From Escherichia coli (GTDB taxonomy: Bacteria; Pseudomonadota; Gammaproteobacteria; Enterobacterales; Enterobacteriaceae), in the NCBI RefSeq assembly GCF_017348835.2, contig NZ_CP071375.1: a DNA stretch of 64,000 bases. One strand, given 5' to 3'. Positions 14,130 through 46,313 of this stretch are shown here, piece after piece; the stretch's first letter is position 1, and each line of letters begins with the position of its first letter. The translations under genes were made by a program, and so were the position numbers. The notes below the pieces were generated by a model that worked only from the letters and a program-made list of their open reading frames with translations, was not told where the DNA came from and made no database searches.

Positions 14130-14171
14130 TAATAATAAACAACGCCCTGCGGGGCGTTATAAGGAGTGATT

Positions 14172-14694
14172 ATGTCTGACCATAATCCACTGACATTAAA
14201 ACTGAATCTGCGGGAAAAAATCGCCTATGGTATGGGCGACGTCGGTTCGAATTTAATGCTTAGCATCGGTACTCTGTATCTCCTCAAATTTTATACCGAT
14301 GAATTAGGGATGCCAGCTTACTATGGCGGGATTATCTTTCTGGTGGCGAAGTTTTTTACCGCGTTTACCGATATGCTCACCGGATTTTTACTCGACTCGC
14401 GGAAAAATATTGGGCCTAAAGGCAAATTTCGTCCCTTTATTTTATATGCAGCGGTTCCGGCGGCGTTAATTGCAACGCTCCAGTTTATCGCCACCACCTT
14501 TAGTTTGCCGGTTAAAACGACGATTGCCACCGCGCTGTTTATGATGTTTGGACTTTCATACAGTCTGATGAACTGCTCGTATGGTGCGATGATCCCGGCA
14601 ATTACCAAAAACCCGAATGAGCGCGCGCAGCTCGCGGCTTACCGCCAGGGTGGTGCAACCATAGGGCTATTGATTTGTACCGTGGCGTTTATTC
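14172..14694 (+). pseudogene. yihO: yihO (GPH-family sulfoquinovose transporter) 5' fragment, truncated after about 174 codons by IS629
   Basis: SD aaggag then ATG 14172; paralogous to yihP over the N-terminus; reading frame runs into the IS629 left inverted repeat at 14695 and terminates inside the IS. Confidence 0.8.
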
Positions 14695-14748
14695 TGAACC
14701 GCCCCGGAAATCCTGGAGACTAAACTCCCTGAGAAAGAGGTAAACAGG

Positions 14749-15075
14749 ATGACTAAAAATACTCGTTTTTCCCCCGAAGTCCGTCAGCGGGCGATTCGTA
14801 TGGTTCTGGAAAGTCAGGATGAATATGACTCACAGTGGGCGGCAATTTGTTCCATTGCCCCAAAGATTGGCTGTACGCCGGAGACTCTGCGTGTCTGGGT
14901 TCGCCAGCATGAGCGGGATACCGGGAGTGGTGATGGTGGACTCACCACCGCTGAACGTCAGCGTCTGAAAGAGCTGGAACGTGAAAATCGTGAACTGCGC
15001 CGCAGTAACGATATCCTTCGCCAGGCTTCCGCTTATTTTGCGAAGGCGGAGTTCGACCGCCTCTGGAAAAAATAA
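14749..15075 (+). CDS. IS629 transposase OrfA (HTH/leucine-zipper component)
   Basis: 108-aa [26 protein letters not shown]... recognised as IS629/IS1203-type OrfA; A6 run 15067-15072 is the likely programmed -1 frameshift site. Confidence 0.85.
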
Positions 15076-15962
15076 TGCCACTGCTGGATAAGCTGCGTGA
15101 GCAGTACGGGGGCGGACCGGTATGCAGCGAACTGCATATTGCCCCGTCAACGTATTACCATTGTCAGCAACAGCGACATCATCCGGATAAACGCAGTGCC
15201 CGTGCGCAGCACGATGACTGGCTGAAGAAAGAGATACAGCGCGTATACGATGAAAATCACCAGGTATACGGTGTGCGTAAAGTCTGGCGTCAGTTGTTAC
15301 GGGAAGGTATCAGAGTGGCCAGATGCACTGTGGCACGTCTCATGGCAGTTATGGGACTTGCCGGTGTTCTCCGGGGTAAAAAGGTCCGCACTACCGTCAG
15401 CCGGAAAGCCGTTGCCGCATGCGACCGCGTAAACCGTCAGTTCGTGGCAGAACGTCCAGACCAGTTGTGGGTGGCTGATTTTACCTGGGTAAGCACATGG
15501 CAGGGCTTCGTTTATGTGGCGTTCATCATTGATGTGTTCGCCGGATACATCGTGGGATGGCAGGTCTCATCATCCATGGAAACAACATTCGTGCTGGATG
15601 CACTGGAGCAGGCGTTGTGGGCCCGTCGGCCGTCCGGCACAATCCATCACAGTGATAAAGGTTCTCAGTATGTATCGCTGGCCTACACGCAGCGGCTTAA
15701 GGAAGCCGGATTACTGGCATCAACAGGGAGTACTGGCGACTCGTATGACAACGCGATGGCTGAGAGCATCAATGGTCTTTACAAAGCGGAGGTAATACAC
15801 CGTAAGAGCTGGAAAAACCGGACAGAAGTGGAACTGGCCACACTAACGTGGGTGGACTGGTATAACAATCGACGATTGCTGGAAAGGCTGGGCCATATTC
15901 CTCCGGCAGAAGCAGAAAAAGCTTATTATGCTTCCATCGGAAATAATGATCTGGCAGCCTGA
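15075..15962 (+). CDS. IS629 transposase OrfB (DDE catalytic domain)
   Basis: 295-aa ORF in -1 frame relative to OrfA; ATG overlaps OrfA stop (TAATG). Confidence 0.85.
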   Translation: MPLLDKLREQYGGGPVCSELHIAPSTYYHCQQQRHHPDKRSARAQHDDWLKKEIQRVYDENHQVYGVRKVWRQLLREGIRVARCTVARLMAVMGLAGVLRGKKVRTTVSRKAVAACDRVNRQFVAERPDQLWVADFTWVSTWQGFVYVAFIIDVFAGYIVGWQVSSSMETTFVLDALEQALWARRPSGTIHHSDKGSQYVSLAYTQRLKEAGLLASTGSTGDSYDNAMAESINGLYKAEVIHRKSWKNRTEVELATLTWVDWYNNRRLLERLGHIPPAEAEKAYYASIGNNDLAA

Positions 15963-16004
15963 GTTCACAGATAAAACACTCTCCAGGAAACCCGGGGCGG
16001 TTCA

Positions 16005-16223
16005 ATGGGCAGAATTTTACTCGATTTATCCGATGAGGTGATTAAGCGACTTGATGATCTCGAGGTGCAGCGTAATCTTCCTCGTGCGGACCTATTAAGG
16101 GAAGCGGTAGATCAATACCTGATAAATCAATCGCAAACAGCAAGAACCAGTGTTCCTGGCATCTGGCAAGGGTGTGAGGAAGATGGTGTCGAATATCAGC
16201 GTAAGCTGCGCGAGGAATGGTAA
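16005..16223 (+). CDS. yiiE: small ribbon-helix-helix (CopG-like) protein YiiE
   Basis: 72-aa [24 protein letters not shown]...; ATG immediately follows the last base of IS629. Confidence 0.65.
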
Positions 16224-16272
16224 TGGGAAAAAATGATGTCAATCAGATTGCTGACAACGTGCGCGTTGTTCA

Positions 16273-16372
16273 TGCCGGATGCGGCGTGAACGCCTTATCC
16301 GGCCTACAAAGTCGTATAAATTCAATGTATTGCAGTTTATTGGTAGGCCTGATAAGCACAGCGCATCAGGCA
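16273..16372. repeat. REP/BIME palindromic units (pair)
   Basis: gccggatgcggcgtgaacgccttatccggcctaca and ggtaggcctgataagcacagcgcatcaggca read directly. Confidence 0.75.
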
Positions 16373-16535
16373 ATCTTACGCTTGTCATCAGTCTCATGCC
16401 CATAACCTTATTGATGTGGTGGTGGGTAAATTGGCGGCATAGCTTGAGGTGGTAACGCGGAATACGAGAGATGGTGTCGTCACACCCTATGAGCTGTAAT
16501 CCGGGCGACCAGCGCCACCCGGAAAACGTCAGAGA

Positions 16536-17465
16536 TTACTCCCCTTCACCCGGAAACAGGAACGGGTTGATGGAACTGCGGGCATAGCCTTCTTGCTCCA
16601 TTCGTGCGTCCAGTACCAGAGAGGCGAGGTCATCTGCTACGGCTTCGATTTTTGGATCTTTTTCCTGATAGAGAATTTTCAGGTAAGTGCCGCAGTCATC
16701 GCAGCTTTCGGCTTTAATCGCGGCCTGTTCGTCATCCAGCGACCAGTAATGCAGTTTGCCGCTCTGCTCGCAGTTGCTGCATTTTACGCGCACTACGTGC
16801 CATTCGGTTTCACACAGGTTGCAGTGCAGGTAACGCAGACCCTGAGTGGTGCCAATTTGCACCATGCTGGACACCGGCATAGAGCCACATACCGGGCAAT
16901 ATTGACGTTGTTCGCCGTATTCAGCGCGGGCTTTGCCGGGGATCAGATTGGCCATCTGCGCCCAGTAGAGCGACAGCGCAGCCCAGATAAACGGCGCTTT
17001 ATCGCTGCTGACGGACGAGAAATCAGAGGCAAACAGCGCGCTGGCCATATCTTCCAGCTCCTGAGTCGATGCCTTCTCCAGATTCTCAATCACTGCCAGC
17101 GCCGGGCCGCTCATTTCAGGTTTCAGCTCAGCAATTAGCGCCATCAGCAGCTTTTGCCAGTGCTTATCACGCGGCAGAACGTGAATATCCAGCGGGGGCT
17201 TGCCCTGTGCGCTGGCTTCTTTAATGCGCGCGGTCAGATCCATCTCCAGCGGATGGTCGTACAGCACCACTTCCTGGGCGTGGGCGATAAGCGCAGCAAA
17301 GCGCAGGTAATCACCCAGCGGATTATTTTCTGCCAGCTCGCGCAGACGCTCGGCGCGGCGGTTGTATAAATTCTTGAGCCGAGGGAACAATAACGGCGGA
17401 ATCATATCCGCCGTACGTTTCTCGCTCGAACCCAGCTCATCTTGCGGGATTATGCGAATACTCAT
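16536..17465 (-). CDS. fdhE: formate dehydrogenase accessory protein FdhE
   Basis: 309-aa ORF with multiple CxxC pairs; recognised FdhE. Confidence 0.92.
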
Positions 17466-45995: not shown

Positions 45996-46050
45996 TGATT
46001 TCGGAAAAAGGCAGATTCCTTTAGCCTGAAACCGATGACAGAAGCAAAAA

Positions 46051-46150
46051 TGCCTGATGCGCTTCGCTTATCAGGCCTACGTGAATTCTGCAATTTATTG
46101 AATTTACAAACTTTTGTAGGCCGGATAAGGCGTTCGCGCCGCATCCGGCA
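46051..46150. repeat. REP/BIME palindromic units between pfkA and sbp
   Basis: gcctgatgcgcttcgcttatcaggcctac and gtaggccggataaggcgttcgcgccgcatccggca. Confidence 0.75.
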
Positions 46151-46313
46151 TCGATAAAGCGCACTTTGTCAGCAATATGAGGCGGATTTCTTCCGCCTTT
46201 TTAACCCCCAACATATACCCGCAAGTTATAGCCAATCTTTTTTTATTCTTTAATGTTTGGTTAACCTTCTGGCACGCTTTGCTCATCACAACACAACATA
46301 AGAGAGTCGGGCG

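Follow-up and report, generated by a model that had tools for sequence, protein, structure and literature searches.

In the 64,000 nt stretch of Escherichia coli DNA analysed here (contig NZ_CP071375.1; hereafter, the window), a 62-codon ORF on the plus strand (16217..16405) begins within the end of a ribbon-helix-helix (RHH) gene and reads through two REP palindromes. The initial annotation regarded this frame either as a dubious small gene or as a gene whose 3' part had been replaced by BIME sequence. The locus raises the question of whether the frame is a gene at all and, if it is not, what the start codon overlapping the RHH stop codon (TAATG) originally served. We consider it highly probable that the DNA behind the RHH gene yiiF is the dead vapC relic of a type II toxin–antitoxin (TA) operon, that a BIME-1 element was later inserted into this relic, and that the frame is non-coding.

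The upstream RHH gene is yiiF

The RHH gene occupies 16005..16223 on the plus strand and is a 72-codon ORF of the CopG type. It had initially been called yiiE, and the frame behind it 'yiiF-like'; both labels were misplaced, as RefSeq gives the name yiiF to 16005-16223 in K-12 and in PE164 (a 100% identical strain), which makes yiiF the gene before the frame. The yiiE gene lies outside the window. The YiiF protein of the window differs from that of K-12 at 2 of 72 residues, and it is ~42% identical to its paralogue YiiE. Pfam RHH_1 scored 20.5 bits on YiiF, exactly the gathering score, and the protein matched both PDB 2K5J, the NMR structure named YiiF (4.9e-43), and the CopG antitoxin chain of the VapBC complex PDB 7BY2 (1e-28).

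In a VapBC module, the toxin inhibits growth and is neutralized by the antitoxin. With yiiF, the locus has the small DNA-binding antitoxin gene of RHH/CopG type that stands upstream in such a module, and we classify yiiF as a putative VapB-type antitoxin gene whose toxin partner is now gone. YiiF may still bind DNA as an orphan antitoxin and repress its own gene. The dN/dS ratio between orphan yiiF alleles ranged from 0.2 to 1.7, values that come from few substitutions and are too noisy to judge selection. Our literature search on yiiF found no paper tying the gene to 'antitoxin', and the one relevant paper retrieved was a transcription-factor survey that made only expression remarks on it; a search on 7BY2 found nothing relevant. 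[quoted passage not shown] The position of fdhE is kept in Salmonella, E. albertii and Citrobacter, and the gene was used as the synteny anchor for the locus.

An intact vapC gene at the same position

In E. coli strain Z226-1, a CopG gene is followed, at the same TAATG, by a gene annotated as 'type II toxin-antitoxin system VapC family toxin'. Its product of 124 aa matched Pfam PIN (4.4e-19) and the VapC chain of PDB 7BY2 (8.7e-63), and carries the motifs FDTN, WMEV, PDAI and TRDF at residues 8, 41, 89 and 109, respectively. Read from these motif positions, D9, E43, D90 and D111 would be the four acidic residues of the PIN domain. Close homologues of this VapC were found across Escherichia, Citrobacter, Salmonella, Klebsiella and Enterobacter. 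In Salmonella enterica, E. albertii and C. freundii, this site likewise holds an RHH-PIN pair convergent to fdhE, and of 5426 complete genomes of E. coli, 57 have intact RHH and PIN/VapC genes joined by the TAATG overlap.

The remark in the initial annotation that the arrangement resembles a two-gene module was therefore well founded, since the junction seen in the window is the one that joins an RHH gene to an intact PIN/VapC gene in these 57 E. coli genomes, in E. albertii, in Salmonella and in Citrobacter. Because the RHH-PIN pair occupies the same place in S. enterica, E. albertii and C. freundii, the two-gene module is the ancestral state at this locus. The orthologous loci have an intact PIN toxin gene directly downstream of the antitoxin gene, with overlapping stop and start codons; the window has none, and in place of the four PIN acidic residues it keeps the TRNTRD segment alone, out of frame.

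Gene order suggests that the Salmonella pair beside fdhE is sehCD (STM4032.2N-STM4033). A source paper on sehCD, in which the two genes were called HigBA-like, is retracted; our Pfam searches gave RHH and PIN. An identification of STM4033 with 'vapC2' was rejected, as Salmonella vapBC2 sits on plasmid pSLT.

The intact segment of Z226-1 is 98.4% (yiiF) and 95.7% (vapC) identical to that of E. albertii, and its yiiF is 88.1% identical to yiiF of K-12. The genes yiiE, fdhE and fdoI, which flank this E. albertii-like segment, are E. coli-like. The segment is either a patch introduced by recombination or an old allele that the two species share, and the intact vapC alleles of E. coli may have been regained by recombination rather than retained.

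A complete BIME-1 element inside the former vapC coding sequence

The two REP units that the initial annotation had placed at 16273-16372 were confirmed, but they are part of a larger repeat, a complete 150 nt BIME-1 element of the RIB/RIP type (16245..16394). BIME-1 elements are usually extragenic and found at the 3' end of a transcription unit; this one is now located between yiiF and fdhE, inside the former vapC coding sequence, at vapC nt 33/34. It comprises an outer arm (16245-16273) that begins AGATTGCTGACAA, a first REP (16274-16307), an L linker of ~35 nt (16308-16342), an inverted REP (16343-16371) and a second outer arm (16372-16394) that ends TTGTCATCAGTCT. The two REPs, which are presumably of the y and z1 types, form an inverted repeat within a single unit, with arms that are 88% complementary. 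The long conserved L linker with an IHF site is part of the definition of BIME-1 (PMC3333891). At the sequence level, the linker of the window copy agrees with the IHF-binding consensus and holds a putative IHF site, with the IHF-like core TTCAATGTATTG at 16321-16332.

The repeat could be aligned end to end, over all 150 nt, with the BIME-1 copies at satP-mog, fepA-entD and pfkA-sbp. With up to 3 mismatches allowed, the first REP occurs 5 times in the window, where chance would predict 0, and among the matches listed the region matched a median of at least 38 places per E. coli genome. The window contains a second copy of BIME-1 at 46029-46178. As RNA, BIME-1 is predicted to fold into one long hairpin (-67.8 kcal/mol, z = -4.66). 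The Rfam scan detected no RNA gene, only the frameshift pseudoknot of an IS element and REP-type matches below threshold, namely naRNA4 (38.2 bits; gathering score, 59.5) and ES036 (36.8 bits; gathering score, 37.6), the latter, ES036/CssrF, on the linker. No convincing terminator was found in a promoter and terminator scan of 15900-16650. Placed between two convergent transcription units, yiiF and fdoGHI-fdhE, BIME-1 may bind IHF and form a hairpin.

Remnants of vapC on both sides of BIME-1

The pieces of the relic were resolved by aligning the window with K-12, O157, TUM1586, one BIME-less allele and Z226-1. To the left of BIME-1, the start remnant (16223..16233, plus strand) corresponds to the first 11 nt of vapC and reads ATGGGAAAAAA, against ATGGCAAAAA in the intact gene of Z226-1. 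The Shine-Dalgarno sequence of vapC, GAGGA, is retained inside the 3' end of yiiF. The 13 nt that follow the start in intact vapC are missing in the window, and the allele sequences identify the next piece (16234..16244, plus strand; TGATGTCAAT, then C) as vapC nt 24-33. At the insertion site, intact vapC reads TGATACCAAT|ATCC.

To the right of BIME-1, alignments and allele sequences define a remnant of approximately codons 9-30 (16395..16442, plus strand), ~48 nt that are diverged and out of frame. The short allele gave a tblastn match to VapC over residues 3-29, with 63% identity. A stretch of ~25 nt (16410-16431) to the right of BIME-1 is far more diverged from vapC than the other parts of the remnant. 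Relative to K-12, the window lineage (PE164-like) also has a 17 nt deletion in the vapC remnant near 16433 (TGAGGCCAAACCGGCAC). The 3' remnant (16443..16500, plus strand) consists of the last 58 nt of vapC, ~19 codons (...VTRNTRD/GVVTPYEL*), up to the original stop codon TAA at 16498-16500, and was detected in the window by tblastn with VapC at E = 1.9e-6.

Two internal deletions separate these pieces from the intact gene. The larger, of roughly 220 nt, has its junction at 16442|16443, between two ATGG repeats of intact vapC; the junction of the second, of 15 nt, is at 16472|16473. Both junctions are identical in the K-12, O157, TUM1586 and BIME-less alleles. Of the proposal that BIME sequence had replaced the 3' part of the frame, the presence of BIME-1 stands; the element was rather inserted at vapC nt 33/34, with pieces of vapC on both sides of it and the ~220 and 15 nt lost from the gene.

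Allele distribution and order of events

The BIME-bearing allele, the type found in K-12 and the window, was present in 3422 of 5426 complete E. coli genomes, and a short remnant allele without BIME-1 in 1028. About 649 genomes keep only the last 59 nt of vapC, including B2 strains such as IHE3034, in which yiiF itself is missing. The relic arrangement is native to most E. coli, including K-12. The initial annotation had named identity with K-12 over the whole frame as the outcome that would make it simply the native locus; K-12 has the same frame, with one amino-acid change.

The BIME-less allele has the same two deletion junctions and no repeat, and it retains the 13 nt that are absent from the BIME-bearing alleles. 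Because an allele with the same two deletions exists without the element in 1028 genomes, BIME-1 probably entered an already dead gene. On grounds of parsimony, the simplest order of events would be the deletions, then the insertion of BIME-1, and the loss of the 13 nt either together with the insertion or after it. In the ancestor, the stop codon of yiiF would have overlapped (TAATG) the start of a 124-codon PIN toxin gene, vapC, convergent to fdhE. Internal deletions would then have removed roughly 220 nt and 15 nt from vapC in the lineage that gave rise to most E. coli. The 150 nt BIME-1 would later have entered between vapC nt 33 and 34, apparently with a target duplication of ~9 nt, and the 13 nt of vapC adjoining the element would have been lost.

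A caveat to this order is that the locus is a mosaic, as TUM1586 (with BIME-1) and 3347558 (without it) have identical yiiF genes and different downstream sequences. The locus provides a population-wide, dated case of BIME-1 entering a dead gene, and the site occurs naturally both with BIME-1 (3422 genomes) and without it (1028 genomes).

The frame is open by chance

The frame at 16217..16405 on the plus strand runs across the vapC remnant and BIME-1. Its first ATG, at 16217, overlaps the last 7 nt of yiiF; the start that belongs to the TAATG is at 16223. The initial description of an ORF that overlaps the upstream stop codon at TAATG and continues through two REPs was thus borne out for the ORF and the REPs, although translation from the TAATG gives 60 codons and not 62. 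The frame ends at a TAA (16403-16405) inside the remnant of vapC codons 9-30, and 150 of its 189 nt (80%) are BIME-1.

The length of the frame depends on the allele: it is 60 codons in K-12, O157 and the window, 21 in TUM1586-type alleles and 18 in BIME-less alleles, and B2 strains do not have the frame. Relative to the window, the 60-codon versions carry 1-3 amino-acid changes; the K-12 counterpart, with one difference, is unannotated. Searches of Pfam and NCBIfam with the frame peptide gave no match, to PIN or to any other family, and the frame is not called in the K-12 annotation or by RefSeq/PGAP. A small gene would be recognized by a frame conserved between alleles and by homologues beyond the repeat, and neither was found. 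The description 'dubious small gene' is supported by the varying frame length (60, 21 or 18 codons), by the lack of Pfam and NCBIfam matches and by the share of BIME-1 in the frame.

Automatic pipelines have called the exact 60 aa peptide (16223-16405) on >1000 contigs, and all members in the database are E. coli auto-calls. The names given to it are 'hypothetical' or, wrongly, 'enterobactin synthetase component D'; the latter evidently arose because a BIME-1 copy lies upstream of entD (fepA-entD). Judged from its sequence, the frame is not a gene and would encode no functional protein, but stays open by chance from the old vapC start through BIME-1. Some translation of a junk peptide is possible, because the Shine-Dalgarno sequence and start codon of vapC are intact. 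A false small-protein candidate can be removed from consideration, and the recurrent automatic calls, sometimes under the name of entD, are explained.

We weighed two other readings of the locus. In one, the frame encodes a real small protein whose translation is coupled to that of the RHH gene, and REP sequence has been recruited as coding material. The TAATG overlap and the GAGGA Shine-Dalgarno sequence 9-13 nt upstream are intact, a 60-codon frame has been kept in three diverged alleles (K-12, O157 and the window), and automatic annotators repeatedly call it. However, these start signals were handed down from vapC, only 21 or 18 codons are open in other alleles, B2 strains lack the frame, no protein family matches it, 80% of it is a repeat present at dozens of non-coding sites, and both RefSeq/PGAP and the K-12 annotation omit it; we consider a functional gene very improbable. 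In the other, the K-12-type arrangement is ancestral, the vapC of a minority of strains is a recent insertion, and the flanking 'remnants' are no remnants. Only 57 of 5426 E. coli genomes carry vapC, and the yiiF-vapC segment seems to be imported, being 98.4% and 95.7% identical to E. albertii between E. coli-like flanks. This reading is scarcely credible given that Salmonella, Citrobacter and E. albertii have the RHH-PIN pair at the same site, that stretches homologous to the start of vapC, to its codons 9-30 and to its final ~19 codons follow one another in the expected order in the K-12-type allele, and that a deletion junction falls between two ATGG repeats of intact vapC.

A probable second vapC relic between yiiE and yiiF

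The stop codon of yiiE also overlaps an ATG (an ATGA start/stop overlap), in a sequence that resembles the start of vapC (ATGACAAAAA...TTTTTCAT). In K-12, the spacer between yiiE and yiiF, which is outside the window, contains CAGATGCCCTTATTCTGG, comparable to PDAIIL of VapC, and a decayed ...CGCAAAAATA... tail. From these likenesses, we read the spacer as a second vapC remnant that is probably older and more decayed than the first. The B2 allele (for example, in IHE3034) lacks yiiF and is a hybrid of the yiiE-side remnant and the true 3' end of vapC. Because the two parts of this hybrid are joined at CGCGAAATACGAGAGAT, the allele suggests that the two toxin relics recombined and that yiiF was thereby deleted in B2.

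A single module is present in Salmonella and Citrobacter, and two RHH genes are present in Escherichia. On the reading above, yiiF and yiiE would be the antitoxin genes of two decayed tandem vapBC modules, an assignment for two K-12 genes of unknown function that could matter for cross-talk with incoming VapC toxins. If this is true, K-12 (yiiE-vapC' and yiiF-vapC') carries two orphan VapB antitoxins. K-12 is usually listed as being without VapBC.

Direct repeats at the ends of BIME-1 copies

Copies of BIME-1 were gathered by scanning species-representative genomes, and 45 non-orthologous full-length copies were scored for direct repeats abutting both ends of the element. Scores above the 99th percentile of an inter-locus control were obtained for 27 of the 45 copies. 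The control had a mean of 5.6 and a 99th percentile of 10, and the observed median was 13, with repeats of up to 31 nt. The repeated unit is specific to each locus and is usually a GC-rich hairpin, most often an entire terminator hairpin (13-31 nt). The filled satP-mog allele, present in 467 genomes, differs from the empty one by the addition of 150 nt and of a second copy of a ~20 nt terminator hairpin. The BIME-1 copy at pfkA-sbp in the window was considered as the source of an empty site and rejected, being fixed in E. coli (5311 of 5426 genomes).

At the yiiF/vapC site, the putative duplication is 9 nt long, with a left copy at 16235-16243 (GATGTCAAT) and a right copy at 16395-16403 (CATGCCCAT), both on the plus strand. 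In TUM1586, the corresponding left flank is GATACCAAT and the right flank is CATACCCAT. The repeat has the same register as at the other sites; it matches at 7 of 9 positions in TUM1586 and at 6 of 9 in K-12, and alone it is not significant. At position 4, both copies have G in K-12 and the window, and A in O157 and TUM1586.

Illegitimate recombination or gene conversion might instead have patched BIME-1 into the locus in place of 13 nt of vapC, in which case the 9 nt flanking repeat would be due to chance. The left junction is exactly where the 13 nt of vapC are absent, the 9 nt repeat is imperfect (6-7 of 9), the ~25 nt to the right of BIME-1 are unusually diverged, and RAYT/IS200-type transposition makes no target duplication (PMC3333891). 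Such patching is nonetheless unlikely, considering that BIME-1 is complete from end to end, that the repeat is in register with those at other BIME-1 sites, that abutting direct repeats exceed the control percentile at 27 of 45 independent copies, and that the filled satP-mog allele differs from the empty one by 150 nt and a ~20 nt duplicated hairpin.

Insertion with duplication of the target leads to a broader proposal, which we put forward tentatively and hold to be rather less probable than not: that BIME-1 is a miniature mobile element that duplicates its target, of 7-31 nt and usually one terminator hairpin; that the yiiF/vapC site is a rare landing in coding sequence, without a strong hairpin and with a duplication of only ~9 nt; and that K-12 is left with two orphan VapB antitoxins. 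We know of no REP-associated (RAYT/IS200-type) mechanism that predicts a target duplication of variable length. If it has not been described before, the bracketing of BIME-1 by duplicated target hairpins bears on how REP/BIME elements spread.

IS629 and a window-specific inversion

The ATG of yiiF is abutted by an insertion sequence of 1310 bp (14695..16004, plus strand), which we take to be IS629 from its OrfA sequence. It has the terminal repeats TGAACCGCCCCGG and CCGGGGCGGTTCA, the frames orfA and orfB, and an ALIL frameshift pseudoknot that scored 116 bits, and it is annotated in PE164 as an IS3 family transposase. The length of ~1.3 kb, the terminal inverted repeats, the two frames with a -1 frameshift and the 3-bp target duplication are those of the IS3 family. 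PE164 has a second, inverted copy of IS629 adjoining yiiE. Because the two copies have swapped their 3-bp target duplications (ATG and TTC), and because the yihX-fabY segment of K-12 is inverted at window positions 249-3165, the rearrangement is explained by two IS629 insertions and a subsequent ~19 kb inversion that reaches from yihO to the start of yiiF.

The position of yiiE is ~2.4 kb to the left of the window. A deletion of yiiE together with ~14 kb was considered and rejected in favour of the inversion between the two IS629 copies. In the window, yihO is split; the ATG of yiiF is kept, and yiiF is severed from yiiE and from its native upstream region. The segments of the window concerned in the inversion are 249-3165, 14166-14694 and 14695-16004. 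In the scan of 15900-16650, no sigma-70-like promoter was predicted between IS629 and yiiF.

Comparison with known systems

What the yiiF locus has in common with the VapBC systems of Enterobacteriaceae (complex PDB 7BY2/7BY3) is an antitoxin gene of the RHH type whose product has a conserved C-terminus, the overlap at TAATG and a location facing the convergent fdhE gene. It differs from them in that the toxin gene of the window is destroyed, with 11, 11, 48 and 58 nt left, out of frame. As in orphan antitoxins that remain after toxin decay, the antitoxin ORF of yiiF is intact and the toxin has been deleted. In contrast to simple orphan antitoxins, the locus would comprise two tandem paralogous modules, both decayed and, in B2, apparently fused by recombination.

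The repeat in the window has the structure of BIME-1 elsewhere, namely two inverted REPs and a conserved ~35 nt linker with an IHF-like core, in a single copy. However, the window copy lies within a former coding sequence and not beside a terminator hairpin, and its putative flanking duplication is ~9 nt, against 13-31 nt at most other BIME-1 sites. Like other spurious ORFs across REPs, the frame yields a peptide (...AGCGVNALSGL...) that is translated REP sequence, and it is annotated only by automatic pipelines. Unlike those ORFs, it begins at a genuine, inherited translation start, that of vapC.
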